Virus record (IMG/VR): IMGVR_UViG_3300037067_013349
Strand: one strand, 5' to 3'
Origin: an uncultured virus (IMG/VR IMGVR_UViG_3300037067_013349)
Lineage: Duplodnaviria; Heunggongvirae; Uroviricota; Caudoviricetes
DNA: 43,790 nucleotides
Below are positions 8,601-27,290 of the stretch, one piece after another. The position numbers and the translations under genes were made by a program. The stretch's first letter is position 1, and each line of letters opens with the position of its first letter. Under the pieces are notes generated by a model. It did not search any database. It worked only from the letters and a program-made list of their open reading frames with translations, and had not been told where the DNA came from.

Positions 8601-11600
8601 TGGACCACCGCCAGGACCAGTAGCACCGGCGGCACCATCAGCACCAGTTGAGCCAGTCGCCCCAAGTCCGCTAGCACCCTGCGGGCCAGTTGAACCGGTA
8701 GCTCCGATTGGGCCACCAGCAGGGCCAGTTGCGCCAGTGAGTCCAATACCAGTAGCACCAGTAGCACCAGTCGGGCCACCAGAAGGGCCGGTAGCACCAG
8801 GAGTGCCAGTTGCACCTGTCGCTCCAATACCAGTAGCTCCAGTTGCACCAGGCAAACTGATTCCAGTCGAGCCGGTTGCTCCTGATGGACCAGACGCACC
8901 ACCAGTAGGACCGGTTGCTCCTATCGGACCCGTCGAGCCCGTGGCACCAGCTCCTGTCGCGCCGATAGGTCCGATTGGTCCCAGCGACCCTTGCGGCCCT
9001 GTCGAGCCAGTCGCCCCTGTCGGACCGCCGCTGGGGCCGGTAGCTCCAGCCGCACCGGTTGCTCCAGAAGCACCAATGATACCAGTTGAAGACCAAGATA
9101 GATTACGATAACCGTCTGTGACTAATACCTGACCGGCTGAGCCGTCGATATTTGGGAATCGCATGTTGCTAATAACAACATTCTTCCCGGTGCCCCATGC
9201 TGAGAGTTGTAAATCCTCCCCAGACACTGAATGGATGACCGATATTTGTAGGCCGCCTGCGTCATCGTATTGTAGCCCAGCACTATCAATTAAACGGCCG
9301 TGAGTACCAGCAAATGGTATCCTATTTGGTGTGAGCCGCGTCCCATCGTTCAGAATAAAGCCTTTACGAGCACCATTAGTTGTGATTGTAAAGTACAGAT
9401 CATCTTGTATGAATTCAACTGCACCAGCTTCTGGTACTGCTAGAACGTCACCAGACTCCATTTTCACCGGTGCATTACCTGGTGCAGCTTTACCAGCTTG
9501 AATATGCAATCTTGCAGTTGGATTATGTATGCCAATACCTGTTTGCTGCCCAGTGACCACAACCGTTTCATCCGCTCTCATTCGCTCCAGTGGATGATAG
9601 AAGTTGGTCAAACGAGTCGCGTTATATTCGGGAACACCAGCGTTATTGTCAAGAGTGACAGTCCCTAACCAGCGATATCCCTTATAGTTGCCACTGGCAA
9701 CGAAGACCGGGACGCCATCTAAGGTTGCAAGACCGTCTGAATCAACTTGTATCCAGTATCCCGCTGCCAAATCGTCCGCGAACACACCAGACGTATGACT
9801 AACGACGCAAGCATACGTGTAGGAATAGAGAACTCTTTGGCCTATTGAATATGATGTCGCGGTAGCCCAATCTTCAATACGGCTCTCAGAAACAGGAGTA
9901 TATTCAACATACTTCAATTCGCCAATAGTAGCAAACCATAGTTGATCTGCACCATCTATCTCCTGCATCGGATATGTGCACGCAGTCACATCAATGCGAT
10001 AAAATCGATATTCTATCGCATTATCGAAAGTGAAATAATCAGACCATATATCAACGCCAGATGGCGGGTCGACATCGGTTCTTGTGTCCAAGACCGACCA
10101 ATTGACATTATCATTCGAGCCAGAAAATGTCCATGTCCTTGGCAGTGATGGATAATAAAGCTTGGCTTTAAATGCGTATTTGTTGATAGCCTTCTTCACA
10201 TATGGACCAAAGTCATATGTGATCCACATAGGCGTTTGGAAAGGATCGCCTGGCGTGTAGCCAGTGCCACCAATTTGAACACCCCATCCCGGATTTCCAG
10301 GCGTGTCTTCTTGGTTGAAAGCGTACCAACCGTACAGATATGTGCCACCGACCTGGACACCAGTTGAACTGGTAATGACCATGTTTGGCGTGGGATCGAC
10401 AAACGACGTCATTACCGCTGTACATGTAGTCGTTCCAGTATTGTATATGCCATCAGACGGTACAAACTTCCAGGGTGCGAACTGAATGTCAAAAGACGTG
10501 GCGTTTACAAATGATGCGAAGACATCATATGTTCTATTGGCAATTAATGGATTTGCACCCATATCATTGACAATATTCGAAACTGTTGGGGCAGTAGCAA
10601 TATTGACGACATCCCAAACACTATTGGTGTCATCATATAACCTAATCAAACTTGATTCTACGAAATTCCAACTTAAAATGGTGGAGCTAGTTATTTTAAG
10701 ATTGCCGCCAACTATGTCGCTGTCAGCAGCGTCTCCGCCATTATCAACCCATGACAAATTACCATAGCCGTCTGTTTGTAGGACTTGGGTTGGAAGGCCG
10801 TTATCTCTTGGAAGATCAAGCGCACCTAATATAATATTACCAATCGTTCCTGCCGCGATTGAGATGTCGCCTGTGTCTTTCTTCCTCTCAACAATGTTGT
10901 AAAAATTGCCTATCAATGAGTTATTGAAATAAGGTGTACCAGCTATATCATATAACGACAATATCCCAAGCCATCTGTATCCTTTGAAATCTCCAGAATT
11001 GGCATAGACAGGAACACCATCAAAAACGCCTAGCCCACATGCTTCAACCAAAATCCACAAACCGCTTGCTAAATCTGTAGCAAAATCACCTGAAGTATGA
11101 GCAGAGAGGCATGCATAGACGCTATCGTGAATAACTCTATCGCCAACATTATAAGCTGTACCAGTTTCCCAATAGCTGGCTCTTGAATTAGCTGGAACAC
11201 CGCGTACGAGCTTAATCTCATTTAGCTCAACATACATCGCCCCATAACCAGCGTCTGCGGGGCAATTGGTGATGAGCTTATAATAGCGATAAGCTATTCC
11301 ATTAGAAAATGTATAATAAGCACTCCATGTTTGATCACCTGGGCCACTTATGCCGGTTCTCGAATCCAACAGAACGTAATCGACGCCGTTCTTTGAGCCG
11401 TAGAGGGAGAATTCGGTTGGAAACGCTCCATTGTCGTTTGCCCGTAAAGCATATTTATTAACAATGGTTGGAATGTTGAAGTCGTATTGTATCCAAGCTG
11501 AGGTAGCTAGCGGAATTGGTGTTGATGACCAGCAACGAGCCACATCGTCACTAAAAGCGTTCCAAGCATCATATAGTTCACTACTTGCACTACTGACCTG

Positions 11601-12926
11601 TGGTGCTGGCGTAGCATCAGATGTCATTGTCGTGGTGCATGTTGTAGTTCCAGGATTGTTAGCACCATCAACAGACACAACTTTCCATGGGGCGAAATCG
11701 ATATCAAACGCAGTCAGCGTACCATTATAGACGGCGAACACATCATAAACCAAATCTGACTCTAATGCATTACCACCTAAATCATTGGAAAGGTTAGAGG
11801 CAACAGGTTCAGTCGCTATATCGAGCAGCTCCCAAGCAAGCACGTCAGTATTATAGAGACGAATGTGACTTGAGGAATAGAAGCTCCAGCTTAGAACATC
11901 GCCAGCAGAAGCTTCTAATCGACCACCAACAGTATCACTGCTCTCGCCACCAGGCACAATCATGCTATTAACATAACGAACTGTCGCTACGTCATCTGCT
12001 ACTGATGGGGTCGGTGTGTGATTGTTGAGGAACTCGTTATCCGTCCCAAGATCGACCGCTGGAATGCGGAATGTATTATGATTAATGACGTTGTTGTCTG
12101 AACCAGAATCCAAGGTGAATGATGATCCGACAGCCCGCTCTACCAATGCGTTGTTCTCGATAGTATTGGAACTTGCACTTACGAGCTTTACAGCGTCCAA
12201 ATTGTCATCGATTTTGTTATAGTGCAGGACGTTGCTGTCTGAATTCTGAACATAAAAGCCAATAGTATTCGACTTAGATGTGCTCTCAGTGATTGAGTTA
12301 TTGTCAGAATAGACGATAGAAAAGCCCGTATTGACGTTAGAATCACTAATATTTTCTTCACCGTGGTTTCCGGTGGAGTTGAAAATACCGATACCATCGG
12401 CATTGTTTAAGGTTGTGTTATTCGAAATTGTGTTATCGTTCGAAGAATTCTTGAGTACGATGCCGTATTCGCGGTTGCCGTCACAAGTGTTATTAGTTAT
12501 GACGTTATTTCCGCTTCCAGTTAATTCGATACCGTTCTTATTCCCTGTGCACACGCACAAATCAATAGTAAAGACGTCTTCTGGAGATGAGTTATCAAGG
12601 AGAATACCAGCTTGGTTGTCTGTAGATGCTGTCACTGTGAATAACTTAAACATGCCGGACACAGCAGTAATCCGGACAGTCGGTGCAGACGTCCCATCTC
12701 CTCTAATAATCGTTGTTCGTGGATCGTCAGTATAAATATTGAGGATCTTGTTGATTGTTAGATTCTCGGTATATGTCCCCGGCCTGACGTAAATAACGTC
12801 TTTCTCAATAGCAGCATTAATAGCCGCCTGGATAGTAGTGTATTCATCATAGTCAGTAGAACCGACGCTGATGGTGTAATCAGCAGTTGCTTTAGTGACT
12901 ATTCTGTCGGTATTTCTTAACGTCAT
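5670..12926 (-). CDS. Collagen-like tail fibre / virion surface protein with a right-handed beta-helix, two discoidin(F5/8)-like plus CBM5/12-like modules, and about 1100 aa of G-X-Y repeats
   Basis: [22 protein letters not shown] followed by GI.L..S.NN.I.NN repeats; WIQYDF..NKY..P....GS....W..LD.R..YRYY twice; W.TGTAY.VG.RV..YAC..HTSG twice; GAT/GAS/GPQ repeats. Confidence 0.85.
5775..9075 (-). repeat. Collagen G-X-Y coding repeat region
   Basis: Recurring [23 protein letters not shown] units; GC-rich periodic DNA. Confidence 0.9.
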
Positions 12927-15409: not shown

Positions 15410-15711
15410 GCCTTAGCACCATCACAATAACGCGGCAGTGCCCAGTCATTGATTATTTTGTCGTTCTACCGAACAACATCGAATCGAAGGCTACTGCTGT
15501 GCCCGTTGCTGGCTTTGTAGCGGCCACAGGCGGCGTTGTGAATAGGCTGTCTCAGGCGAGCAATCAAGGCAGACATGGCTATCGATTCGGCACTCAAGAA
15601 TGGGTTGAGTTATCCGAAGCTATTGGCGGTTCAAATGCAGCGTTGGAAGCTGGTAAGACCCTGTATGGCACTAACGTGCGAACCGACAAGCCTAAGCCAT
15701 GGGAAAGCTAG
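15406..15711 (+). CDS. Hypothetical protein
   Basis: Coupled ORF, convergent with kdsB. Confidence 0.65.
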   Translation: MSLSTITITRQCPVIDYFVVLPNNIESKATAVPVAGFVAATGGVVNRLSQASNQGRHGYRFGTQEWVELSEAIGGSNAALEAGKTLYGTNVRTDKPKPWES

Positions 15712-16478
15712 AACGGGCGATTCATTCTAATAACGAACGCCATATAATCTTCTTTAGTATCGATACCATAAGTGGGTTCGTTGGCGATTCCTACTAAGAT
15801 TTTATGACCAAAATAGAGTGCCCGTAGTTGTTCAAGACTCTCCATAGTCTCCATCTGGCATGGAGGATGTTGGACGAGTTTTAATAAGAAATCTCGCCTA
15901 TAAGCATATACACCCACGTGCCGATAAAAAATGGTTCGCAGGAATTGACTGTTATCGGGTTCTGTGCCACCGTCTAATATGCCAGGATATGGAACAGGAC
16001 CTCGGCTGAAATACAACGCCCTGTTCTCATGATCCAGAACAACCTTCACACAAGATCGGTTGCAAAGCTGCGACAGTGAGCGAATCGGAGAAGCAATTGT
16101 ACTCATCACTTCTGCTGGATTCTCTTTGAGTAGCTTGACGGCCAAATCGATCAATGAACCCTTTATCTCAGGTTCATCAGCTTGCACATCGACGATGATA
16201 TCAGCGTCGGCGTGATCTGCAATTTTACTAGTAGCTAATGCTACTCTTTCCGTGCCATTCTCTGCCGCACCGGTCATCACGACGTCTCCGCCGAATGACT
16301 CTACTTCCTTACGAATAGCCTCGTCATCAGTCGCAACGCACATACCTGTCGAATATATAGATTGCATCGCTGACTGATAGGTATGGTGCAGAACAGATTT
16401 GCCGGTATTACGCAACAGAAGTTTACCGGGCAAACGAGACGAGCCCATACGAGCAGGAATGATAATTTTACACTTCAA
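15708..16478 (-). CDS. kdsB: 3-deoxy-manno-octulosonate cytidylyltransferase (CMP-Kdo synthetase)
   Basis: IIPARMGSSRLPGKLL, VATDD, GTERVA, VQADEP, VKVV..ALYFSR, HVGVYAYR, ESLEQLRAL, GIDTKED motifs. Confidence 0.93.
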   Translation of the reverse strand: MKCKIIIPARMGSSRLPGKLLLRNTGKSVLHHTYQSAMQSIYSTGMCVATDDEAIRKEVESFGGDVVMTGAAENGTERVALATSKIADHADADIIVDVQADEPEIKGSLIDLAVKLLKENPAEVMSTIASPIRSLSQLCNRSCVKVVLDHENRALYFSRGPVPYPGILDGGTEPDNSQFLRTIFYRHVGVYAYRRDFLLKLVQHPPCQMETMESLEQLRALYFGHKILVGIANEPTYGIDTKEDYMAFVIRMNRPF

Positions 16479-16491
16479 GGGCTGGATACTC

Positions 16492-17982
16492 CCTGTAGTC
16501 CTGTAATTGCTTGGGAACGAACACTGTTCTCCCTTTTATGTGGAGTAGTTCCGCGTCGACCTGTAGCCCTGTAATCCTAACGCTATTCTCATTATCACTT
16601 CAACATTTCAGAAAAATCCTGCAGCCCTATCGATCCGGCCATCTTCACTGTTTGCGCCTGTAGTCCTGTAATTGCCTAGTAGTTACCTCCATTGCGAAGA
16701 GGCTTTGTGACGTTAATCACGACCTGTAGTCCTAACGCTATTCTCCATTTTACCGAGAACGAAATGGCCCTTTCCCTGTAGTCCTAATGCTTCATTCGGC
16801 ACCCTACTTCACCTGTAGTCCTAACGCTATTTTCATTAATCGTATCAAAGTCGTAATCGAGCGACCTGTAGTCCTGTAACGCTATTCTCCATTGCGATCA
16901 ATCGCTACACGCGGCGGCAAACCTGTAGTCCGCAGGGTAGCCACTACGAACAGATGGACCTGTAATCCTGGAAACGAACGCTCTATTTGGGAGCCTGTAG
17001 TCCTAACGCTATACCAGAAGTATGGCGACCTGTAGTCCTGTAGTTACCTGGGAACGAACGTTATTCTCCATTGCTTCTCCGAAGCACCTTCGGAATGTGG
17101 AACCTGTAGTTACCTGGGAACGAACGCTATTCTCCATTGACGGTCGCTTCAAGCAATATATGGGACTCCTGTAGTCCTGTAATCCTGGGAACGAACGCTA
17201 TTCTCCATTTGGGAAGGCGATACTCAACAGCATTCTGCACCTGTAGTTACCTGGAACGAACGCTATTCTCCATTCACTTCGGTTGAAGTCTGGTCCACCG
17301 CTGACCTGTAGTTACCTGGGAACGAACGCTATTCTCCATTAAAACCGAGCATACCATCTCCCCTGTAGCTGCTAAGCAAATACGCCATGGGAGCCTGTAG
17401 TCCTGTAGTTCTAATGCTGTTCTCCATTCATAAACACAAACCGCATAAATCGGAGTGTCCTGTAATCCTGTTTTGAGCCTGCCGTATCAGATTCCTGTGA
17501 CCCTGTAGTCCTTCTCCATTTTACTCGGTCAGATAGGCTCCATGTGACTTACCTGTAGTCCTGTAATTCAAGCGGGCCAAGAATACATCCTGTAGTTACC
17601 TGAGAACGAACGCTACTCCATTTTTCAGAAGAGATACATCATCCTGTAGTCCTGTAGTTTACCTGGGAACGAACGCTATTCCATTTGCCGCAAATTCGAC
17701 AGGCTATACGATCTCCTGTAGTCCTGTAGTTACCTTGGGAACAAACGTTATGCTCCATTAAACTGGGAACGAACGCTATTCTCCATTAGTTGCTCGACTC
17801 GCTGTTCGGTCTGCGCCCTGCAGTTACCTGGGAACGAACGCTATTCTCCATTTGGCGCGTCCGTGATCTATATGCCTGTAGTCCTGTAATCCTGGGAACG
17901 AACGCTATTCTCCATTGCTTTGGCTAGTGAAGTCTTCTAGCTTGGTCCTGTAGTTACCTGAGAACGAACGCTATTCTCCATT
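16492..17982 (-). CRISPR. CRISPR-like array 1: about 27 degenerate repeats; full repeat 36 nt (+ strand CCTGTAGTTACCTGGGAACGAACGCTATTCTCCATT); spacers mostly 27-31 nt
   Basis: Perfect 36-mers at 17103 and 17305; variants beginning CCTGTAGTCCTGT or CCTGTAGTCCTAA; unique spacers between them. Confidence 0.9.
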
Positions 17983-17989
17983 TCGCTAT

Positions 17990-18547
17990 TTAGGTTGTTT
18001 CCGGCATCTTGTCTTTCTGCACGGCCTCGGTAGCAATAGCATATTGCAGCCTGACATAGCTCGAAGCCAATATCAGAAGCGTGTTGAGATTGACGGTGAT
18101 TTTCTCCTTGGGACATTCCAGGTGCACCAGTATCTCATCATTGACCTTTCGGCCTTTTATCTCAACCGCTCCAACTTCGTTGTTCAAAATCTTGCCGTTG
18201 ATCCAAGCGGTGACGCCGTGACCGCTTGGATCGGCCCAATCGTCCGACAGACCGGCAGCCGCCATGAAAGCCAAAAGGCTTTTGCCCTCTGGCGATCGTG
18301 CTAAGCTAGAAGACATTCCAGAAGGTTTAGGGAACTTTACTGGAAGCCTCACCACTATTTCGCGCTCCACAGGAGTTTCGTCGTCTCCGAATTTGACTAT
18401 CCATACTTCCGTGGGCGGATCAGAGGTATGGCAGAGTCGAACCAGCGATATGAGTTGAGCCTTACCTTCGAGTTCCCGATACTCGCTGAGAGACCGCTGC
18501 TTTTTGTAAATGGAGCACAAATCTCCACGCTTCAAAACTGACTTCAC
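17990..18547 (-). CDS. Hypothetical protein between the arrays
   Basis: 185-aa ORF, GGGGAG Shine-Dalgarno, stop 7 nt before array 1. Confidence 0.75.
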   Translation of the reverse strand: MKSVLKRGDLCSIYKKQRSLSEYRELEGKAQLISLVRLCHTSDPPTEVWIVKFGDDETPVEREIVVRLPVKFPKPSGMSSSLARSPEGKSLLAFMAAAGLSDDWADPSGHGVTAWINGKILNNEVGAVEIKGRKVNDEILVHLECPKEKITVNLNTLLILASSYVRLQYAIATEAVQKDKMPETT

Positions 18548-18618
18548 ATTACTACTCCCCTTGAGCCATTGAAAATCATCATTGATGTCCGTATCTTTTT
18601 ATAGCTCGACGAATAGGG

Positions 18619-19140
18619 TCAATTAGCTTCGAGTTCAATTATCTTAGCTTGAAGCTCGGCAATTTGCGCCCGAAGAGCCTCGTTCTCCGCTTCCAGTGTC
18701 TTGATGCGGGCTAAAAGCTGGTCCTGGACTGCCTGCATCGACGCCTTGACCTTGCGGGCTTCCTTATATGGGTCGGCTGGCTTGGCCCGGCGACGACGTG
18801 GCGGAACGTCGGATTTCGTCTTGGCGAGCATACCGTTGTACATGTCGCGAAGCTTGCCATCCTTCCATTGATATTCTTCCGGATAATGATTGAGCATCAT
18901 CCGTAATTCGGAGAAGGTCAAGCAAAGGTCGCTGACATATTCATCCAGGATGGCCAGAAGCTTGTTGTTGTCCAGGATCTCGTTGTCGGCCCGAAAGTCT
19001 GGGTCTTCATAGACACTGTTCAATAGAGTTGCCCGCCGATAGGCATTATGGCCACTCGACTGCTGCAGCTTCCGGACTTGCTGTAAGAGCTTCTTGTACT
19101 GCCTTTTGCAGCGTGGCTGGGTTGGTGCGGTCGACCTCAT
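18619..19140 (-). CDS. Hypothetical protein with C-terminal coiled coil
   Basis: AAGGAGG upstream; LLARIKTLEAENEALRAQIAELQAKI heptads. Confidence 0.75.
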   Translation of the reverse strand: MRSTAPTQPRCKRQYKKLLQQVRKLQQSSGHNAYRRATLLNSVYEDPDFRADNEILDNNKLLAILDEYVSDLCLTFSELRMMLNHYPEEYQWKDGKLRDMYNGMLAKTKSDVPPRRRRAKPADPYKEARKVKASMQAVQDQLLARIKTLEAENEALRAQIAELQAKIIELEAN

Positions 19141-19252
19141 CGATAGTCCTCCTTAGTCTTTTATGGAAAGCTGATAGTTGTGCACATTGGCGACAGCAAA
19201 ACTTCTTGTTGCCGTTCAATGGTGTCTTACATACTGGACATAAACCTGTCAT
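19046..19252 (-). CDS. Small zinc-ribbon protein (CPVC...KFCCRQC)
   Basis: CxxC plus FCxxxC motif; overlaps the next ORF. Confidence 0.45.
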   Translation of the reverse strand: MTGLCPVCKTPLNGNKKFCCRQCAQLSAFHKRLRRTIDEVDRTNPATLQKAVQEALTASPEAAAVEWP

Positions 19253-19295
19253 TGTGCGTATTAGAGAACCTGTAGTTATCGCGTTACGGGCTTCG

Positions 19296-19691
19296 TTACT
19301 GTAATCCTGCTTCTGCGTTTTGTTCCTCGACAGGCATATCGACCTCTATCAACTCCTTGACGCCAAGCTGAGAGGTCGTTACTCTTATCGCATTGTTGAC
19401 GATATCCCAAATCTTTACTTCGCGTTCAACTATCCCTTGGCAGTTGCAGTGTACTAAACCGCTCATTCTTACAGATACACAGCAACCGGTTGGGTTGTCC
19501 AGATGTACCTTGAATTGTCGGCGCTCATAATCCTGCCAAGCCCAAATTCGCTTGCCGCAAATCTCGCAGCGCGTTATAGCTGGATAACCGTGCCAATTTG
19601 GATCAAACCAAAGTAAAGCTGCCTTGCCGATAACTATCCCAACAAGAATGCATACTGCAAGTATCAAAAACTTAATCACGTAAATTCTCAT
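19296..19691 (-). CDS. Hypothetical membrane-anchored Cys-containing protein bounded by repeat cores
   Basis: N-terminal TM helix, CEICG; repeat-like core at 19709 upstream and at its own 3' end. Confidence 0.6.
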   Translation of the reverse strand: MRIYVIKFLILAVCILVGIVIGKAALLWFDPNWHGYPAITRCEICGKRIWAWQDYERRQFKVHLDNPTGCCVSVRMSGLVHCNCQGIVEREVKIWDIVNNAIRVTTSQLGVKELIEVDMPVEEQNAEAGLQ

Positions 19692-19720
19692 ATGCGCCGT
19701 TCGGAGCCCCCGCAGTCCTG

Positions 19721-19900
19721 TTATGTTGTCTGCAAGAAGTCTCTCATTTCGATCAATTCATCAACACTTCTGAATGACATTTGGTAGCCATCCTTTTCTA
19801 GTATGAGAATCAATCCTTGCAGCATAAGCTTGAGTCGTCGAAAATTTTCCACATTGTTTAAAAATACGAGAAGTTCGTGACGCCACGAGTTTGGCACCAT
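19721..19900 (-). CDS. 59-aa ORF exactly filling the space between two repeat units
   Basis: Hand-translated MVPNSWRHELLVFLNNVENFRRLKLMLQGLILILEKDGYQMSFRSVDELIEMRDFLQTT*; ATG abuts repeat 19901, TAA overlaps core 19709-19721. Confidence 0.55.
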   Translation of the reverse strand: MVPNSWRHELLVFLNNVENFRRLKLMLQGLILILEKDGYQMSFRSVDELIEMRDFLQTT

Positions 19901-20581
19901 CCTGCAGTCCTGTAGTTACCAAACACTGGATTTCCAAACGAGATTTATTAAACCTGTAGTCCTGTAGTCTAATGCTATACTCCATTGTATCGCTATGTCG
20001 CTACTTTGCGAAGAGCCTGTAGTCCTGTAGTTACCGAACGCTATTCTCCATTTTCACGTTCCACTCGATCTTGTTGAAACTCCTGTAGTCCTGTAATCAT
20101 AACGCTATCCCAAAATGTCAGGAGGGCGTCATTAGTCCTGTAGTCCTGTAGTTACCTGGAAACGAAATTTCACCACAAAACCGAATTTTCAAAGAACTCC
20201 TGTAGTCCTGTAGTCCTAACGCTATTCTCCATTACCGTAATTTATGGGGTACCTGTAGTCCTGTAGTCCTAATGCTATTCTCCATTCATACATTCATGTA
20301 TTTTGGCGGCAATGCTCCTGTAGTTACCTGGGAACGAATGCTATTCTCCATTTGAGCAAGATCGAGCTGTGCACCGGCATTTCCTGTAGTTACCTGGGAA
20401 CGAACGCTATTCTCCATTTGTCAACAACGCTGGTATACTCCGATTCCTGTAGTCCTAATGCTATTCTCCATTTGAGAAGTGGAACGGCCTGTGCTTCAAT
20501 GCCTGTAGTCCTGTCCTATAGTCCTAACCTGTTCTCCAGAGGTTCTTACCACCTGTAGTCCTGTAGTCCTAACGCTATTTT
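19901..20581 (-). CRISPR. CRISPR-like array 2: about 12 repeats of the same family
   Basis: Repeat starts at 19901, 19953, 20016, 20082, 20137, 20199, 20252, 20317, 20383 (perfect 36-mer), 20446, 20502, 20552; spacers mostly 27-32 nt. Confidence 0.9.
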
Positions 20582-20743
20582 TCACCATTTTTTACTGCAA
20601 AGAGCCAAAGCAATGTATGTCACTCCTATGAGAATCTGCAACCCCCAAAAGGTCCAAATTCTGATGACACCCATTACCAATAAAATGGCAAACGCTACAT
20701 TCGATATTCCAGACAGCATATCGACAATTTTTCTTCTGGTCAT
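20582..20743 (-). CDS. 53-aa two-TM membrane protein between repeat units
   Basis: Hand-translated MTRRKIVDMLSGISNVAFAILLVMGVIRIWTFWGLQILIGVTYIALALCSKKW*; degenerate repeat catgtagtaccttgaaacgctatt immediately upstream. Confidence 0.55.
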   Translation of the reverse strand: MTRRKIVDMLSGISNVAFAILLVMGVIRIWTFWGLQILIGVTYIALALCSKKW

Positions 20744-20847
20744 AATCCATGTAGTACCTTGAAACGCTATTAGGTGGTTCCCATCGCCTAACTATTGTCT
20801 TCCTCTTCCCTCAAGTGTTGTTACTCATGATTCAAGAGCAAGTGCTA

Positions 20848-21399
20848 CCTGTAGTCCTGTTATACTTCTTCTGGCAGCCTGAAAATATTAACCCACCTGC
20901 CATGGATTTTTGTTTTGCGCTTCACCAATTCGCCCGGTGTTCTAGCCAATGCTGCCATCACGCGGTCTGATGTTTTTGTGCATTCATGTGGCCACCCCAG
21001 CCGCTCGGCTATCAAATGTAACAACCCCTCGTCACCAAACATGACGGCTGGATTGTCCGTTTCTCTCAGCACTTCAACAGCAGCATCACATGCTCGCATG
21101 TTTGAACCATCTAATCTTAGCGGCCTGCAGTCCTGTTATTCAATCAATCAACGTGAAAAAGGGCGGACGACCTGTAGTCCTGTTATTTGCCATGTGTCGT
21201 CTGACTCACTTCACATGTATAATATATAAAATTCAGCTTGTGCTTGTCCTGCAGTCCTTAATACCGTGTCCCAAAAGGCGGTGTCCATTGATGGAAAAGG
21301 ATATAAATGCAAACTATTTCTGCCGCGAACGTCAAATTAAATGATACAAGCGATAGTAACGTTGAATGCCAATAAGTGGCGGGACAAGTCCTGTAGTCC
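20848..21399 (-). repeat. Dispersed minimal repeat cores CCTG(T/C)AGTCC(TGT) at 20848, 21124, 21171, 21248, 21390
   Basis: 10-13-nt matches to the conserved end of the array repeat, same orientation. Confidence 0.75.
20860..21099 (-). CDS. Hypothetical protein flanked by repeat cores
   Basis: 79 aa; stop overlaps CCTGTAGTCCTGT (20848-20860); core at 21124 upstream. Confidence 0.65.
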   Translation of the reverse strand: MRACDAAVEVLRETDNPAVMFGDEGLLHLIAERLGWPHECTKTSDRVMAALARTPGELVKRKTKIHGRWVNIFRLPEEV

Positions 21400-21407
21400 G
21401 TATCCGT

Positions 21408-21436
21408 ATTATATACTACTATAAAGTGGCTGTCAA
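21408..21436 (-). promoter_or_regulatory. Perfect sigma70 consensus promoter (TTGACA-17 bp-TATAAT) pointing into the repeat region
   Basis: + strand tgtcaa at 21431-21436 and attata at 21408-21413, 17-nt spacing; predicted start about 21401, just before the first core. Confidence 0.85.
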
Positions 21437-21452
21437 GTCTACAGCACTTTGT

Positions 21453-22598
21453 TCATTGCCTAACCGTAACGTCGATATCAACCTTGTTACAAGATCGTTG
21501 AATCAACGACTGCATTTGTTGCCAGTCCCATCGAGTCGTCTCGGTGTCACCAATACGTCCAGCATATGACAAATAGTAATCGGTGGGCGGGGCGAAAATG
21601 ACAAGATGACCGATGCCGTTTGTCACTAACAATCTCGTCACGTCATTGGCGAGATGAGTGCTCCAGGTCTTGATGAAATCACGCCAACGCCGCTCATATT
21701 TCGCTTTGTCGGCGGTCGAGCCCTGCTTCCTAGTCTTCTTGCTCTCCTGAATGTCCAAGGTGTTTCGTGTGTGCTCGACATCTTCGCCACGGCGAAGACG
21801 GAATATGGTTCTGCCATTGAACCGAAAAGAAAATGGCCGGTGTTGTGCTGCCAATAGGAATGCAGTCTTGTTCTTGTTAAGCGGCAGTCTCACCTTCGGA
21901 ATTGAATGACAGAGATAAGCTTGCCATCGACCGTCGCGTTCCTTCAAATCGACGCCCTTCAACTCCCATTCGCCAGCCGTAATTTTCCACAACGCATCGC
22001 GGACAGAATGTAACCGGTAGCTCTTGGTCTTGATGACGAAAACCATCGGACCGTAGCCGTCAACATCGACCTCAAGCTTCCAGTCTTCATCCTTGGTTTG
22101 TGGGACGATGATCCGACAATCTCGTTTGTGCAGCGGAATATTGCTGCGTTTGGACGATTGCGAAAGACCACCACAGCCAGCGAGAACGGTTATCCAGCGT
22201 GGATAAGCTGATCTGTATCCACGGTGGTGTAACAAATCCTTAACCGCCTTATGCACCGCCAACTTACCCTCTCTGCCCATTAATGGGTGCTCGGCTGCAA
22301 TGATTTCGTCAAGCTGCTGAGCGATTTCGTCGCTGTAGGGGTCGACTGGGCATCGAATGCGAGGACCGACTCTGCTTTCCGGCTCATAGAGCCATCGTTT
22401 GTCCTGTTCGAGCCATTCACGAACCAATAGGTGGTTATTGGCGTCAAAATGAAGCTGTAGCCAAGCCGACATGAAATCGTTGACAATTTGTTGAATGTCG
22501 GTGGCCAGTGAGAGCAAATGCTTTTTGTGCGACTTGAAGCTGTCGTCACTACCGATCAAATCAACCCGTTTGTTCTTGATGACTCGGAAATCTCCCAT
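21453..22598 (-). CDS. cas12f: Cas12f/TnpB-family protein B, predicted nuclease-dead and C-terminally truncated
   Basis: LWKITAGEWELKGVDL..DGRWQAYLCH WED signature; RuvC-I position reads TAFLLAA, RuvC-II position HLVIFAP; WDWQQMQSLIQ..DIDV ends the protein; clear paralog of 22825..24240. Confidence 0.75.
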   Translation of the reverse strand: MGDFRVIKNKRVDLIGSDDSFKSHKKHLLSLATDIQQIVNDFMSAWLQLHFDANNHLLVREWLEQDKRWLYEPESRVGPRIRCPVDPYSDEIAQQLDEIIAAEHPLMGREGKLAVHKAVKDLLHHRGYRSAYPRWITVLAGCGGLSQSSKRSNIPLHKRDCRIIVPQTKDEDWKLEVDVDGYGPMVFVIKTKSYRLHSVRDALWKITAGEWELKGVDLKERDGRWQAYLCHSIPKVRLPLNKNKTAFLLAAQHRPFSFRFNGRTIFRLRRGEDVEHTRNTLDIQESKKTRKQGSTADKAKYERRWRDFIKTWSTHLANDVTRLLVTNGIGHLVIFAPPTDYYLSYAGRIGDTETTRWDWQQMQSLIQRSCNKVDIDVTVRQ

Positions 22599-22611
22599 AT
22601 TGTCTCCATAA

Positions 22612-22687
22612 AGGTAACTCTGGCGAGGGCTAACACGGTACGGAATGCCCGCAGCTATTCTCGCCTTCGAGACGTACAGGACGCCTC
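22612..22687 (-). ncRNA. tracrRNA-like RNA copy 1 (3' tail AGUUACCU)
   Basis: 76-nt repeat; 5' hairpin GAGGCGU-CCUGU-ACGUCUC; GGCGAG/CUCGCC stem; tail complementary to repeat AGGUAACU. Confidence 0.75.
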
Positions 22688-22705
22688 TATTTGTGATTTA
22701 TAAAA

Positions 22706-22781
22706 ACAGGACTCTGGCGAGGGCTGACACGGTACGGAATGCCCGCAGCTATTCTCGCCTTCGAGACGTACAGGACGCCTC
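22706..22781 (-). ncRNA. tracrRNA-like RNA copy 2 (3' tail AGUCCUGU followed by a U-run)
   Basis: Near-identical 76-nt copy; tail complementary to repeat ACAGGACU. Confidence 0.75.
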
Positions 22782-22824
22782 CGGTTGTGATTCTGGATAT
22801 TAGTAGCGTGAAAGTAACTATTAA

Positions 22825-24240
22825 TTAACTATCCCGATTTTCGGATTTAATCTGCAGTCCCGGTTCGTCGTCTTCCTTCTTCCGCGACTTGCCTCCTTGC
22901 TTAATGACCACATTTATACCAGCAGCCTTACCAACTTGCTCCAACTGGCGTTGCATATGGTACCAGTCCCATGCCGTCGATTCGCTACGGCCTATCTTAC
23001 CAACATGGGACAAATAGCGGCTATCACGCCATTTCCCGGTCGGTTGATAAGTCACGAGACGCCCAATGCCGAATTTGACACAGGTACTGATGACTTCTGC
23101 GGCCCAATTGTTGTTGAAGGTTTTGGTCCGATTGCGCCAATTGCGTTCCGATTTCTTTCGCCAGTCATGAACCTTACGGCCATGATTCTTACGAGCACTG
23201 GAAGCATACTTGTAGCTTTCGTTCTTACCAAATCGTTGAAGCGTCAAAGAACGACGAGCCCGTTTAATATGCTTGCAACTTCGCATTCGCATTTGCGTCT
23301 TGCCGTTGATGCGGAACAGAACAGCACCATATCGACCGGCTGATACGATAGCCGTTTTGGTGCTGCTGAACGATGCCGTGACGCCAGGAATCAGGTAGCA
23401 TATATCAGCGTACCACTTTCCTTCGAACTGGACGAGTTGGGAAGTGTTGAGAATATAATCGCCAGATGCAATTTTCCACAACACGCGACGAATTGGCGAC
23501 AACTTACGCCCACCGGTGGTGAGCCTAAACGTCATCGGACGTAGGAACCTTTTACCCTCAATCTTTTCATAGCGAACGGTCAGCTTCCATGGCTCATCAT
23601 TGCTACGGGGCACAACAAGATTGCTGTTGCTTGTATAGAATGGAACAGGTAGAGGCTTAGACGATTGTGGGTATTCTCCAAGCCCTGTTAAAATCCTAAA
23701 CCATCGTTTGTATTTGGATTTCGTCGCTGGTGCTTTGATAAGCGTCTTGCTAAGCCGATTGGTTACAATGCCAATCGGCTTAGTTCCAAGATTGGCATGC
23801 TGGGTGGTCAGCAGGCCATAGATCTGAATCCCCATTTCGTTGGTGTATGGCTGCACAGGGCATTTGATACGTGGCGGTATATCAACCTTAGGTTGATCTG
23901 ACGCCTTCTTTTTGCCGTTCTTGCCCTTCTTGCCATTTTTCTCGGCTTTTTGAGCCGCTGCCAGCTTGGCGTATTTCCGTGCCCACTCTTTGTCCTCCTC
24001 AATCCATTTGCGAAGGGCGGTTGGCGATCCAGCCTGTCGGTGCAATCGGAACCATTGACTATAAAAGTCGTTGGTAATTTGCTGCATCTGGCATGATAAC
24101 ATCACCAGACGTCTTTTCTCCTCGGCAAAATCGCCGTCACAGCCGCTCAATTCGACCCGAATGACTTTGGTGAGTCCATCAGGCTTCTTTTTACGCGGCT
24201 TCTTCGGGTCGTCTTTCACGGTCGTCTTCTTCTTACTCAT
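22825..24240 (-). CDS. cas12f: Cas12f/TnpB-family protein A, predicted nuclease-dead and C-terminally truncated
   Basis: TKVIRVEL N-terminal strand; KIASGDYILNTSQL..GKWYADICY; bridge region KYASSARKNHGR...RNRTKTFNNNWAAEVI..GIG; WDWYHMQRQLEQVGKAAGINV; GIDLG site reads IVSAG, EDL site reads YQP; no CxxC finger or RuvC-III. Confidence 0.8.
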   Translation of the reverse strand: MSKKKTTVKDDPKKPRKKKPDGLTKVIRVELSGCDGDFAEEKRRLVMLSCQMQQITNDFYSQWFRLHRQAGSPTALRKWIEEDKEWARKYAKLAAAQKAEKNGKKGKNGKKKASDQPKVDIPPRIKCPVQPYTNEMGIQIYGLLTTQHANLGTKPIGIVTNRLSKTLIKAPATKSKYKRWFRILTGLGEYPQSSKPLPVPFYTSNSNLVVPRSNDEPWKLTVRYEKIEGKRFLRPMTFRLTTGGRKLSPIRRVLWKIASGDYILNTSQLVQFEGKWYADICYLIPGVTASFSSTKTAIVSAGRYGAVLFRINGKTQMRMRSCKHIKRARRSLTLQRFGKNESYKYASSARKNHGRKVHDWRKKSERNWRNRTKTFNNNWAAEVISTCVKFGIGRLVTYQPTGKWRDSRYLSHVGKIGRSESTAWDWYHMQRQLEQVGKAAGINVVIKQGGKSRKKEDDEPGLQIKSENRDS

Positions 24241-24260
24241 TTAACATTCCCTATTGAAAA

Positions 24261-24336
24261 ACAGGACTCTGGCGAGGGCTAACACGGTACGGAGTGCCCG
24301 CAGCTATTCTCGCCTTCGAGACGTACAGGACGCCTC
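24261..24336 (-). ncRNA. tracrRNA-like RNA copy 3 (3' tail AGUCCUGU followed by a U-run)
   Basis: Third 76-nt copy directly upstream of effector A. Confidence 0.75.
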
Positions 24337-24507
24337 CGGTTTTCATGTAGGTTTATAGCTCCCTGCTGATGGTTGATTAACTTAAATCACCTGCGAGCTA
24401 CTTCTGTTATAGCCTCAGTGAAGCTATTAATTAACTGACTGAGCACATATTTCTCTGGGTTAAATCGTAGCAACCGTCGTGCTATAAGTACTATAGGGAG
24501 CCAAAAA

Positions 24508-25218
24508 ATGCGAATGAACAAACGGTACATCTACCCGCCACGTCCAAAAGACGCAATCCCTTTCAATCAGATTGGGATGTATAATCAGTACGGGTGGAAA
24601 GCCCAAACGAAATTCAATGATAAACGCACCGAAATAGCAATTGATGCGAATTCGGTCGAGATATTTAACCGCCACAAAGGACAACACAAGACATTTATGT
24701 TGTCCGACTCTTTACGAGATGAAATCGTCGCTGTTTGTCGCGATATTTTTGGGTTGGATGTGTCGCAGTGGTCATACCTCGATGGAGGGTTGCTTGATGG
24801 AAAGAGCAAACACATTGAAGGAATAGTGGTCATATGGGATATTCTGGTTCGCGAAGGCGATTGGCTCGTTGGCAGCACTTACCAAGAGCGATATGGATGG
24901 CTATTAGCAAAAGCAGAGGCCGCTGGTGGAGAGCCATTCATCGTCATCATAAACGGCCAAGAGTTTGACTTCGGCATCAGGCTCAGCGAGCACATCTTTA
25001 TGCCGCGATTCTGGGAGGATTTTGAATCTTGCTGGCAATTCACACAGAGAGTCAATAAAGCTGCCGGGTGGAGCATGGAGAATGGCGGTGAGCCTGTATT
25101 AGAAGGGATTGTGATGAAGGACCCTCAAGGAGTCTTAAAACCGGATAACGGGAAAGAAAAGAACAACACCGAATGGTCGGCCAGAAGCAGAATCAGAACC
25201 GGACGGCATCATTTTTAG
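24508..25218 (+). CDS. ATP-dependent ligase-like nucleotidyltransferase (adenylation domain only)
   Basis: QTKFNDKR (motif I-like), YLDGGL, IWDIL, EGIVMKDP; no OB domain apparent. Confidence 0.7.
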   Translation: MRMNKRYIYPPRPKDAIPFNQIGMYNQYGWKAQTKFNDKRTEIAIDANSVEIFNRHKGQHKTFMLSDSLRDEIVAVCRDIFGLDVSQWSYLDGGLLDGKSKHIEGIVVIWDILVREGDWLVGSTYQERYGWLLAKAEAAGGEPFIVIINGQEFDFGIRLSEHIFMPRFWEDFESCWQFTQRVNKAAGWSMENGGEPVLEGIVMKDPQGVLKPDNGKEKNNTEWSARSRIRTGRHHF

Positions 25219-25226
25219 GAATTACT

Positions 25227-25406
25227 ATGACACACGAAGAATTGAAAATTGGACATGAATATAATCTCATCGATCAGCCTGTGAAGATTGTTGAAATCAT
25301 ATACTTCATGGACAATGGAAGGAAAAATGCTGAAACAGCCATAGCAACGACGCGATTTGGTGGCACGGTAGAAGTGCCTATTGCAGCATTGCAGAAACGG
25401 CAATAA
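25227..25406 (+). CDS. Small hypothetical protein (start MTHEELK)
   Basis: AGGA upstream; in a plus-strand run. Confidence 0.5.
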   Translation: MTHEELKIGHEYNLIDQPVKIVEIIYFMDNGRKNAETAIATTRFGGTVEVPIAALQKRQ

Positions 25407-25435
25407 ACAACGAAATCTATCTGAAAAAGGGTGTC

Positions 25436-25639
25436 TTGCTAATGCAACAGCCGACGCTTGAAATAACGCCACTAGGAGCAGCCCTGGTTGAAGCCATGCC
25501 AGACCGAAAGAAGATGGCCCGCATTCGCAGGATGTTCCGCGAAAAGAAATGTCCTGATTCTGAGTTATTTACAGCCAAGGCTGTGGAAAAGTGGTATGCC
25601 GACCGAGGTCAGAAAATAAAAGGTATCGAGCGCACATAA
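25436..25639 (+). CDS. Small hypothetical protein
   Basis: 67-aa ORF in a plus-strand run. Confidence 0.5.
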   Translation: MLMQQPTLEITPLGAALVEAMPDRKKMARIRRMFREKKCPDSELFTAKAVEKWYADRGQKIKGIERT

Positions 25640-25650
25640 AGGAAGTATTA

Positions 25651-26310
25651 ATGACTGACGAGATACGTGAAACACATGAAAGTTTCGGAATGATTGGTTT
25701 TTCCCGTGGTACTCGCGGAGGAGCCGGGACTAATCTGTTTGGATCTTCTATCCGGCATCCTCACACAATCACATGTCGCATTAAACGGGCAATGAAAGAA
25801 AGGAGTTTAAATAGAGATGCGTACTATGGAAGAGACACCTTAATCGAAGTCGAAATGAGTCCGATGCAATTTGCGGATGCTATCACCGCTCTCAACGTCG
25901 GAGACGGTGTTCCATGCACGATTCGCTATCTCGAACGTACTGCGATGGAGGAATGTCCAGAAGAAACAATGCGGCAGCAATTCGAGCAAGAATTCAAAGA
26001 TAGCTGTCATAAAGCAACTGAGGCAGCAGGCACTCTGGTTGAACGGGCACAAGAGTTATTGGGGCAAAAGACACTCAAAGTAGCAGATCGTAAAGAGCTA
26101 CTCGAAGTTTTACGAAAGATTCAGATGGACCTAGAATCTAACTTGCCATTTATCGGAGAGCAGTTTAACAGAGCCGTGGACAAGGTTATCACGGATGCTA
26201 GAAGTTCGGTGGAAGCATTCTTCCTGCAACGCACCAATGAACTAGGTATAAAATGCCTCCAAGGCGGCGAGCCTCTGACGCCGACACCAGCTATCGAAGT
26301 TGAGGGCTAA
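25651..26310 (+). CDS. Conserved-looking phage hypothetical protein (start MTDEIRETHESFG)
   Basis: AAGGA upstream; LFGSSIRH, EVEMSPMQFA, GDGVPCTI segments. Confidence 0.75.
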   Translation: MTDEIRETHESFGMIGFSRGTRGGAGTNLFGSSIRHPHTITCRIKRAMKERSLNRDAYYGRDTLIEVEMSPMQFADAITALNVGDGVPCTIRYLERTAMEECPEETMRQQFEQEFKDSCHKATEAAGTLVERAQELLGQKTLKVADRKELLEVLRKIQMDLESNLPFIGEQFNRAVDKVITDARSSVEAFFLQRTNELGIKCLQGGEPLTPTPAIEVEG

Positions 26311-26311
26311 T

Positions 26312-26833
26312 ATGCGCACAATTTACCAAAGCAGCTACGACAAATCACATGCTGATGTCTTCGAAGAGCGGATTGCAGACATACAATTCGAAGCGTGTAA
26401 TCTGGCAGAATTGGATGAATGGACACTGACCATCATCAAAATGCTCTGCCCACCACACAAAAGACAAGCCTCGCTTGAAATGGGCAATATATGTGTCAAA
26501 GAGTCGCCCAAACACCATGCGCCGCCCAGCCGCATATTTAGAATCAAAGAATATGAAGAGCTTTTCTGGTATGTTGATATTATACCTGCTACAAGACAGT
26601 TTCTGTTCATCGCCGATAAAGAGCATACACAGGCGATACCTCCAGATGAAGGCATCGCTAAATTGATTCATTTTCAGACTGGTTGTGATACTCAATCGGT
26701 CATTTCCGATAGTGCGGCGTCTATAACAGTCAAAGCAGGTCCGATATCGATTACATCAGTCGATATGAGGACACAAGAAGACCGTAGAAAAGCAATGGAA
26801 ACAGCATTGCGACTGTGGGATAGTGATGACTAA
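26312..26833 (+). CDS. Hypothetical protein
   Basis: ORF directly after the previous stop. Confidence 0.65.
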   Translation: MRTIYQSSYDKSHADVFEERIADIQFEACNLAELDEWTLTIIKMLCPPHKRQASLEMGNICVKESPKHHAPPSRIFRIKEYEELFWYVDIIPATRQFLFIADKEHTQAIPPDEGIAKLIHFQTGCDTQSVISDSAASITVKAGPISITSVDMRTQEDRRKAMETALRLWDSDD

Positions 26834-27290
26834 CTATGAAGAATCATTGAAAAAATACGTTGAAGCAATGGTGCAGATACAACGTGCAATATACAGCGAC
26901 CAACTAATATATTGCGGCATGGAAGAAATCGTTTTAGCGTCTGGGCAGTTCGACATAGCTCAACCATTGCCAGCAGGCTTCAATGTCGGCAGGATGAAAG
27001 AATGCTTTCGTAACGCTTTTCTGTTGATGTTAGAAGGCTATACTTATGTCGAAGGTATAGCTATGACCGAATCCGCTCTATTTCCTATTCATCATGGTTG
27101 GTGTGTCGATACCAATAATCGCGTTCTGGATACTACATGGTCTGATGGAGTTGCATATTTTGGAGTCCATTTGAGTCAGGGTTTCGTCCTTGAAAGGGTA
27201 CAAAATAAAGGAAGATATGGAGTGTTTGGTTCTAAAAACGCTCTAGATATATACAAACATGGTCTACCACAGGAAGCACTAACTAGATGA
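26823..27290 (+). CDS. Hypothetical protein, possible transglutaminase-like Cys-His-Asp fold
   Basis: ECFRNAF...YVEG...IHHGWCVD...DTTW. Confidence 0.65.
   Translation: MMTNYEESLKKYVEAMVQIQRAIYSDQLIYCGMEEIVLASGQFDIAQPLPAGFNVGRMKECFRNAFLLMLEGYTYVEGIAMTESALFPIHHGWCVDTNNRVLDTTWSDGVAYFGVHLSQGFVLERVQNKGRYGVFGSKNALDIYKHGLPQEALTR

Follow-up and report, generated by a model that had tools for sequence, protein, structure and literature searches.

Cas12f proteins work as dimers on one guide RNA, and Cas12m, Cas12c, TldR and dCas12f bind DNA without cutting it. The guide duplexes of Cas12b, Cas12f1, Cas12g and Cas12l are described as a long repeat:anti-repeat (R:AR) stem together with a pseudoknot, the short stem of which has 5–7 base pairs (bp); in the same account, this short stem is essential for AsCas12f1, in which 28 repeat bases are bound (PMC11246509). 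The AsCas12f1 scaffold is reported to have 171 nucleotides (nt), stems 1–4 and two R:AR segments, with a conserved core composed of stem 1, stem 2, part of stem 3, and R:AR-2 stacked on stem 1 (bioRxiv 10.1101/2023.07.03.547593). Dead Cas12f/Cas14 proteins of phages are already known in print. Al-Shayeb et al. (2020) described a phage ‘dCas14’ with a host-targeting spacer (PMC7162821), and Hoffmann, Wiegand et al. (2026) characterized sigma-E-linked dCas12f and mention a separate, array-associated dCas12f cluster (PMC13472631). According to Altae-Tran et al. (2023), Cas12f branches lost RuvC-III, and then reduced their CRISPR array and fused a half repeat to the trans-activating CRISPR RNA (tracrRNA; PMC10691335). 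Here we analyze a stretch of 43,790 nt from an uncultured virus of the Caudoviricetes (IMG/VR record IMGVR_UViG_3300037067_013349; this whole stretch is called the window below), in which a 76-nt element occurs three times on the minus strand between positions 22612 and 24336. Judging from its sequence and that of related loci, we consider it likely that this element is the tracrRNA of a phage-encoded, nuclease-dead Cas12f system of a type V-F-like kind.

Anatomy and placement of the element

The three copies occupy positions 22612..22687 (copy A), 22702..22781 (copy B) and 24257..24336 (copy C). They are near-identical, and each measures 76 nt, counted from where hairpin 1 begins to the last base of the tail. 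Copy B extends from 22781 to 22706 with a U-run to 22702, and copy C from 24336 to 24261 with a U-run to 24257. In all three copies, hairpin 1 is GAGGCGU-CCUGU-ACGUCUC, with 7 bp including one G-U pair, and is followed by GAA; stem 2 is GGCGAG...CUCGCC around an inner stem of GCU/AGC and (G)CGG/CCG(U). A reading made from the letters of the window alone (the sequence-only reading) had placed three 76-nt minus-strand copies here, each with a 7-bp hairpin containing a G-U wobble and with a GGCGAG/CUCGCC stem. All of these features are present in each copy, and the G-U pairs suit the minus strand only. It had further described a 3' tail followed by a U-run, which is what we observed in copies B and C, ending in AG-AGUCCUGU-UUUU, but not in copy A, which ends in AG-AGUUACCU-UUAU and thus has a different tail and no U-run.

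The end of copy C lies 17 nt upstream of the ATG of a gene for a 471-amino acid (aa) protein. Copy B is situated just 3' of this gene and 94 nt upstream of copy A, and copy A continues straight into the ribosome-binding site and ATG of a second gene, for a 381-aa protein. Both proteins are Cas12f-like (see below), and their genes and the homologous genes elsewhere are referred to here as dcas12f. Promoter-like boxes are found on the minus strand upstream of copy C (TTAATC-17-TATAAA, 24352..24380) and upstream of copy B (TTAATA-16-TAATAT, 22797..22824). Similar boxes stand before copies in the related loci L001, L002, L003 and L007; before many copies they take the form TTAAC/T, 16–17 nt often ending in TGC, and TAnAAt, and they end approximately 15 nt before hairpin 1. 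Since all of these boxes were read by eye and a sigma-70 consensus scan flagged none of those preceding element copies, we regard them only as putative promoters. Based on the sequence, one may picture a small RNA with a leaky U-run terminator, the read-through of which would feed the dcas12f mRNA or the array transcript. An Rfam search at gathering thresholds gave no match anywhere in the window, and for 22560-22860 no family matched even when the limit was set to E <= 10.

Conservation of the structure in related loci

We compared 18 related loci, from 4 viral contigs, 11 metagenomes and 3 metagenome-assembled genomes (MAGs). A covariance model, R1, was built from 11 element copies and gave 28 matches at E <= 1.5e-6, located in 14 of 16 sources, and L016 and L017 were matched as well. 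The window copies score 109.3 bits (copy A), 104.5 bits (copy B) and 104.2 bits (copy C; E 5e-25). A covariance model from homologous loci was one of the checks that the sequence-only reading had proposed, and it reveals a conserved fold beside the homologous gene in 15 of the 18 loci, always on the strand of the dcas12f gene and often in 2–4 copies. Among the 21 copies listed, 12–13 end 10–30 nt (in L017, ~60 nt) before a dcas12f start codon. The remaining copies stand directly before an array leader (L001:5396; L002:5206, 8908) or elsewhere; copies located before arrays or between genes include window copy B, L001:5396, L002:5206/5803/8908 and L014:2208.

In an alignment of 20 sequences, which is fitted to the structure and leans towards the model, 97.7% of cells are paired, and both partners have changed in 11 of the 20 pairs. 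The observed values were reached in none of 500 shuffles, and slid partners were 30–50% paired. Because the model alignment leans in this way, 12 diverse copies were also aligned with MAFFT alone and folded with RNAalifold, which predicted hairpin 1, stem 2 and the stems inside it de novo; compensatory changes are seen in 9 of 17 pairs of this prediction. Compensatory variants of GAGGCGU/ACGUCUC in hairpin 1 are GAGCG/CGCUC, CAGGCCG/CGGCCUG and ACGGUCG/CGACCGU, and GGCGAG/CUCGCC in stem 2 is replaced by GGUGAG/CUCACC. Two positions hold a G-U pair in 16 of 19 and 14 of 20 rows, respectively, which suits the element strand only.

Two further arrangements were observed. At L013:3814-3881 (also L012:2100-2167), a second, tandem tracr-like copy directly precedes the gene; it lacks hairpin 1, and with it the loop anti-repeat, and keeps stem 2 and the tail. 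Directly upstream of the tracrRNA copy of L009 there is a 14-nt tandem repeat, (AGTGGGGAGTGGGK)n, at L009:2102-2171.

Pairing of the loop and the tail with the local repeat

The element has two points of complementarity to the CRISPR-like repeat, and both co-vary with the repeat of the same locus. The sequence-only reading had proposed that the loop of hairpin 1 is complementary to the end of the repeat. Across the loci this holds in four classes: loop CCUGU with repeat end ACAGG (window, L001–L004 and L013), CCUGA with UCAGG (both L014 copies and both L014 arrays), CCUGC with GCAGG (L009, the contig of which ends exactly at the end of the first repeat), and CCUA with UAGG (L016 and L017, where the sole repeat-like sequence ends in (G)UAGG).

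It had also proposed that the tail pairs with the repeat bases preceding this end. We found at least six tail variants that match the repeat of their own locus, so that this proposal stands, with the amendment that the tail of copy A matches a second repeat variant instead. In the window, tail AGUCCUGU of copies B and C corresponds to repeat ACAGGACU and tail AGUUACCU of copy A to repeat AGGUAACU, which gives two tracr/repeat pairs inside the window itself. In other loci, the corresponding tails and repeats are AGUCACC(UUU) and (AAG)GGUGACU in L002–L004, AGUUACCC and GGGUAACU in L013, CUACCCUU and AAGGGUAG in L009, GUCAUGUGU and ACACAUGAC in L017, and GUCAUGUU and AACAUGAC in L016. L014 has two such pairs, UGACCA(UU) with (GG)UGGUCA and GACCACUUU with AAAGUGGUC. 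In a 9 x 9 energy table, the rows of which are not phylogenetically independent and include two pairs of identical rows, cognate tail:repeat duplexes average -12.0 kcal/mol, and 1 of 20000 permutations was as good. The designation of the tail as the best pairing site is taken solely from this tail-versus-repeat table. Several of the tail:repeat duplexes contain G-U pairs, which favors pairing between RNAs over an inverted repeat at the DNA level.

In one copy the two parts are joined. At L003:7291-7377 (identical to L008:1955-2041), the tail AGUCACCU is joined directly to GACUACAGG, which corresponds to the last 9–10 nt of the repeat, and to a spacer, and a decayed mini-array follows. By its sequence, this fused copy appears to be a natural single-guide form in which the long duplex is cut to a 4-bp hairpin. 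Pairing of the 5' half of the repeat with the tracrRNA was considered and rejected: the shared GAGAAUAGC block has the same sense in both, and the loop of stem 2 varies freely among loci.

Cas12f-like proteins

The 471-aa protein (P0001; 22825..24240, minus strand) and its 381-aa paralogue (P0002; 21453..22598, minus strand) are 32% identical over 421 columns, and neither has a match in Pfam or PHROGs. In a scan of 1.84 billion cluster representatives (clusters at 50% identity), 248 relatives were identified at E <= 1e-3. A family profile of 87 of these 248 was compared with PDB chains and matched AsCas12f (8dzj, 8j12, 7wju) at E about 1e-37 (best 9e-38), SpCas12f1 at 4e-33, OsCas12f at 2e-26, the sigma-E-type ‘nuclease-deactivated Cas12f’ 9N9C at 2e-15 and Un1Cas12f at ~1e-10. 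An AlphaFold (AF2) model was confident, with a predicted local distance difference test (pLDDT) value of 90.4, and Foldseek placed Cas12f first (8j12_A, E 6e-21, probability 1.00, template modeling (TM) scores 0.47/0.51), followed by TnpB, Cas12k and Cas12m.

P0001 has the Cas12f fold, but neither the RuvC acidic residues nor a C-terminal zinc finger are present in P0001 or its paralogue. In the column aligned to the aspartate of AsCas12f RuvC-I (GIDLG), D is present in 0 of the 87 profile members. At the RuvC-II position there is a conserved LVYxQP, with Q in 71 of 87, and the proteins end before RuvC-III. The C-terminal tail past the last conserved motif has a median length of 23 aa and contains CxxC in 0 of 87 members; a match to the Pfam family TNB is weak and found in just 7 of 87 (best E 0.0038). 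Because the RuvC acidic residues, RuvC-III and the CxxC tail are all missing, we refer to the family as nuclease-dead Cas12f. To judge by these sequences, the whole family is a C-terminally truncated, nuclease-dead form of Cas12f.

CRISPR-like arrays and half-repeats

Two CRISPR-like arrays lie on the same strand as the Cas12f-like genes, adjacent to and downstream of them. Array 1 (16492..17982, minus strand) has ~21 units with mixed repeat variants (...AGGUAACUACAGG and ...ACAGGACUACAGG). Array 2 (19901..20590, minus strand) has ~11 units of 50–66 nt (one of 117 nt), with decayed repeats ending in ACUACAGG. In all there are ~32 units, of 50–74 nt, and the repeat type is AAUGGAGAAUAGCGUU(CGUUCCCAGGUA/AGG)ACUACAGG(ACUACAGG). 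Both arrays contain the variants ...ACAGGACU-ACAGG and ...AGGUAACU-ACAGG. Within 16491-21389, 23 of 44 sites end in ACAGGACU[AG]C[AG]GG and 8 in AGGUAACU[AG]CAGG. We counted 47 occurrences of the sequence ACTACAGG on the minus strand, as against none on the plus strand, and 16 occurrences of the 5' repeat block GGAGAATAGC. The arrays look rearranged and duplicated, and in these decayed arrays the 13-nt docking core at the 3' end of the repeat has been kept far better than the 5' block.

Among the related loci, the gene of L004 is immediately followed by 13 identical repeats of 36 nt with spacers of ~30 nt, L001–L003 have regular units of 65–66 nt, L013 and L014 also have arrays, and L016 and L017 have a solitary half-repeat only. 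In G002, the record containing L001, a further array with the same repeat is located at ~123,660-124,060, ~90 kb from the dCas12f locus. A motif GGGAACCACCUAA(U/A)AGCG, which from its sequence may be an array leader, was seen upstream of arrays at ~20764-20782 (minus strand) in the window and at ~9225-9245 and 10775-10795 in L001; in the window, a 53-aa open reading frame (ORF) lies between this motif and the first repeat.

The window also contains solitary half-repeats, all on the minus strand. A sigma-70 consensus promoter (TTGACA-17-TATAAT, 21408..21436; 12/12 matches) is located right after the 381-aa gene, and a half-repeat ending in CGGACUACAGG (21390..21405) follows within a few bases, as though a single tagged RNA were strongly driven. 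Half-repeat AUAACAGGACUGCAGG (21124..21139) is 24 nt before the ATG of a 79-aa ORF (20860-21099), half-repeat AUAACAGGACUGCGGG (19709..19724) is 17 nt before the ATG of a 131-aa ORF (19296-19691), and one ending in GAUAACUACAGG (19269..19284) is 16 nt before the ATG of a gene for a zinc-ribbon protein. The leaders of these three ORFs show no obvious Shine-Dalgarno sequence. A search with the pattern CATGACTNNAGG gave no match, as the actual half-repeat has A instead of T at one position.

Accessory genes and genomic context

Two small genes accompany the system. The first (19046..19252, minus strand) encodes a 68-aa zinc-ribbon protein with four cysteines (CxxC...CxxxC) and a KRLRRT motif, and the second (18619..19140, minus strand) a helical protein of 173 aa that has a coiled coil/leucine zipper at its C terminus. 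A zinc-ribbon protein (65–70 aa) and a leucine-zipper protein (173–191 aa) come after the system wherever the sequence of a locus reaches far enough: both genes are present in the window, L001–L004, L010, L013, L017 and L020, and L016 contains the start of the first gene only. The end of a repeat or half-repeat abuts the zinc-ribbon gene, or lies up to ~40 nt upstream of it, in every locus showing this gene. The accessory proteins matched no family, and an atlas look-up of the coiled-coil protein returned nothing above 0.83 and no informative family. The loci in Planctomycetota MAGs have no array and consist only of the tracrRNA, dcas12f, one half-repeat and the two accessory genes. On contig C1 of MAG G001, the half-repeat/zinc-ribbon/coiled-coil module of L017 is duplicated 22 kb downstream (L020) without dcas12f, and the 16-nt ‘guide’ past the half-repeat is identical in L017 and L020.

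The window is part of a large phage that encodes DNA methylases and a tail fibre with collagen repeats; a 167,790-bp contig carries the protein cluster of the window's own protein. Reading the minus strand downwards from 24336 to 16492, one meets copy C, the 471-aa gene, copy B, copy A, the 381-aa gene, the sigma-70 consensus promoter, the small ORFs preceded by half-repeats, array 2, four small genes and array 1. A gene for a cytidylyltransferase (PF02348, E 4e-46; 15708-16478, minus strand) comes directly after array 1, and a homologue also follows the array in L001. The tail-fibre protein (5670-12926, minus strand) has 2418 aa with collagen-like triplet repeats, and many tandem repeats there have periods of 9–120. 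Positions 21400-24400 gave no blastn match among GenBank phages. No match to the adaptation genes cas1, cas2 or cas4 was found among the window ORFs scanned, and none of four related phage records, including one rated 100% complete, yielded a Cas1.

Discussion

The assignment of the element as a Cas12f tracrRNA, towards which the sequence-only reading had pointed, draws support from its Cas12f-homologous neighbors, from the presence of the element on the same strand in 15 of 18 loci, and from the co-varying contact points. The element is separate from the arrays, carries an anti-repeat complementary to the repeat in four loop classes and at least six tail classes, and has a conserved secondary structure. 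Its transcription, its binding by a protein, the binding of DNA and the outcome are what we infer from this. Minus-strand transcription would yield each copy, probably under a weak -35/extended -10 promoter of its own. The RNA is predicted to fold into hairpin 1 and a bulged stem 2, the conserved core of Cas12f guide scaffolds, and would capture any transcript in which the final 13 nt of the repeat are present. The 3' tail would pair with 8–10 nt of the repeat as the ‘long’ anti-repeat, here very short, and the loop of hairpin 1 would pair with the final 4–5 nt of the repeat beside the spacer as the ‘short’ anti-repeat, in a pseudoknot stacked on hairpin 1. A homodimer of dCas12f, or a dimer of the two paralogues, may then hold the downstream ~20–30 nt as a guide and bind complementary DNA uncut, and the likely result would be that transcription or replication is blocked at the targets.

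Several points weigh against this interpretation. Folding of single copies is ordinary (z -0.36, -0.86 and -2.41), so that the case beyond chance rests on the comparison with other loci. In that comparison, three of the 18 loci (L010, L015 and L018) gave no element match; L010 and L015 have almost no sequence upstream, and L018 has 2.9 kb upstream and still no match. Most related copies are near-identical, and the co-variation therefore comes from ~6–8 independent lineages; the leaning of the model alignment and the dependence among rows of the duplex table belong here as well. A duplex of 8–10 bp is short for RNase III, which leaves the maturation of the CRISPR RNA (crRNA) unexplained. With respect to targets, guides of the window gave only chance-level or repeat-derived matches within the window, and no convincing protospacer emerged when 191 candidate guides, drawn from the window and from four related phage records, were compared with these same 738 kb, where near-full-length matches were orthologous genes with a chance motif or duplicated spacers within one array. 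Against GenBank phages, an L001 array gave no matches and the L004 array gave four Gordonia phage matches at E 0.2, that is, at chance level. For the guide of the MAG half-repeat, the only other exact match in that genome was the second copy of the half-repeat/zinc-ribbon module, and not a target. Since none of these searches yielded a spacer target, DNA binding and what follows from it are purely conjectural. Finally, 12–13 of the 21 copies abut a dcas12f start and copy A has no terminator, which makes a cis role as an mRNA leader possible beside the role in trans.

Carried to its limit, this last point would reduce the element to a cis-acting 5' leader of the dcas12f mRNA, an attenuator or autoregulatory site, instead of a guide scaffold acting in trans. 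The 10–30 nt between these copies and the dcas12f start, with a short U-run between, and the lack of a U-run in copy A are in agreement with a leader. Other copies, however, stand before arrays or between genes, the copy at L003:7291 is fused to a repeat, and a leader alone would not make the loop and the tail track the local repeat. We thus consider it unlikely that the element is only a leader, and note that leader and trans roles can coexist. The fused copy could instead be taken as typical, so that each copy is an omega-RNA-like single guide with its own guide after the tail and the arrays are unrelated or vestigial, in line with the sigma-E-linked dCas12f systems, which are described as using single guides with no tracrRNA found for them (PMC13472631). 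This is very improbable: most tails precede a U-run and then a ribosome-binding site or an array leader rather than a variable guide, and the arrays are large, with ~32 units in the window and 13 identical repeats in L004, and have repeat ends that match the tail and the loop.

A different role is suggested by reports of solitary repeats of phages as RNA anti-CRISPRs (PMC10651486) and by a phage Cas9 with a dead RuvC domain that was proposed to be an anti-CRISPR (PMC12669027). The dead protein, the element and the repeats might then form a decoy against a Cas12f of the host, with mimic RNAs and a dominant-negative effector, and the several solitary half-repeats of the window would fit this. 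We give such a decoy very little credence, given that the system is self-contained, with effector, tracrRNA and arrays with dozens of different spacers, that the same module is present in a bacterial MAG chromosome (L017), and that no host Cas12f system is known here. Last, the tail and the repeat end are inverted repeats in DNA, and the arrays look rearranged and duplicated, as might be expected if the complementarity were a feature of the DNA, for recombination or as the site of a DNA-binding protein, without pairing of RNA. However, hairpin 1, stem 2 and several of the tail duplexes contain G-U pairs, which DNA or the opposite strand would turn into A-C mismatches, compensatory changes preserve the RNA fold, and a repeat search found no long inverted repeats in 20000-27000; a purely DNA-level origin is therefore extremely improbable.

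For the tracrRNA that we favor, the substrates may not be limited to arrays. Because half-repeats precede the small ORFs and the zinc-ribbon operon, and one follows the sigma-70 consensus promoter, the tracrRNA may also act on tagged mRNAs in addition to array transcripts, although we think this less likely than not. It is conceivable, although we are doubtful, that the tracrRNA reads a 13-nt tag and not the CRISPR repeat as such, and would be a converter of mRNA to guide or the basis of a tracrRNA-dependent post-transcriptional switch. Wherever the tag is transcribed, the RNA downstream of it would then become a guide or would itself be regulated. The zinc-ribbon and coiled-coil proteins would be the real output or the partners of the system, and the two paralogues with two matched tracr/repeat pairs would constitute orthogonal channels or a heterodimer.

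If the tracrRNA assignment is correct, the element would be among the smallest natural dual-RNA scaffolds described for a Cas12-type protein, with ~80 nt, a 13-nt handle and binding-only proteins of 381–471 aa. The natural tracr/repeat variants could serve as orthogonal pairs, and the natural single-guide fusion shows a way to join both RNAs and, if it is what it seems to be, provides a design template for very compact tools of the CRISPR interference (CRISPRi) type. The work documents a sizeable family of array-bearing, nuclease-dead Cas12f proteins, with 248 clusters at 50% identity in large phages and some bacterial MAGs, and adds two conserved accessory genes to dCas12f systems. This family fills a proposed step between active Cas12f and sigma-factor-linked dCas12f, namely loss of RuvC-III followed by array reduction and tracr-repeat fusion.

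Comparison with known systems

The system shares with dCas12f-sigmaE (PMC13472631; 9N9C) an origin from Cas12f, a C-terminal truncation that removes part of RuvC and, presumably, the RNA-guided binding of DNA that is left uncut, as described for dCas12f-sigmaE. By contrast, dCas12f-sigmaE is described with an operonic gene for an extracytoplasmic function (ECF) sigma factor (rpoE) that has a C-terminal domain (CTD) extension, whereas the conserved neighbors here are the zinc-ribbon and coiled-coil proteins, and a scan of the 60-odd ORFs of the window with Pfam and PHROGs found no gene for a sigma factor or a helix-turn-helix (HTH) protein. According to the same description it uses single guides and no tracrRNA, whereas scaffold copies and arrays are separate here and are fused only in L003/L008. 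The family profile also scores AsCas12f (1e-37) far better than 9N9C (2e-15). The array-associated dCas12f cluster and the phage dCas14 (PMC13472631, PMC7162821) resemble the system here in arrangement: they are described as nuclease-dead proteins beside CRISPR arrays, one of them in a huge phage, are read as repressors, and adaptation genes are usually absent from such phage systems, as is the case here. They differ, by description only, in that a two-point tracrRNA, mRNAs tagged with half-repeats and accessory genes do not figure in those accounts. A full-text literature search, figures and supplements aside, likewise found no published description of the minimal tracrRNA, the half-repeat-tagged leaders or the accessory genes.

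The omega-RNA of TnpB and TldR is similar to the element in having a pseudoknot beside the guide and the guide at the 3' end, and TldR is phage-borne and nuclease-dead. Omega-RNA is, however, a single RNA that overlaps the 3' end of the gene, without arrays; here the scaffold is 5' of the gene and the guides would come from arrays, and TnpB chains rank well below Cas12f. Cas12m, Cas12c and Cas12k also act in interference or targeting by binding alone, but are larger and belong to unrelated branches, and Cas12m and Cas12c need no such tracrRNA.

The closest solved relative of the effector is type V-F1 AsCas12f1 (8J12, 8DZJ, 7WJU), in which the guide is also 3' of the repeat. Its scaffold is likewise described with a short R:AR pseudoknot beside the guide on stem 1, a bulged stem 2 and a second, 3' anti-repeat. 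Compared by described architecture, AsCas12f1 has 171 nt with stems 3–4, a long R:AR-1 and 28 bound repeat bases, whereas the element here has 76–80 nt, no stems 3–4 and 13 repeat bases that would be bound, so that its description as unusually compact in the sequence-only reading is a fair one. The two further differ in that neither the RuvC acidic residues nor the zinc finger are present in the effector here, and in that the element has no match in Rfam. By this analogy, the element looks like the conserved core of the AsCas12f scaffold alone, the tail being what appears to be an 8–10-nt remnant of the long anti-repeat.

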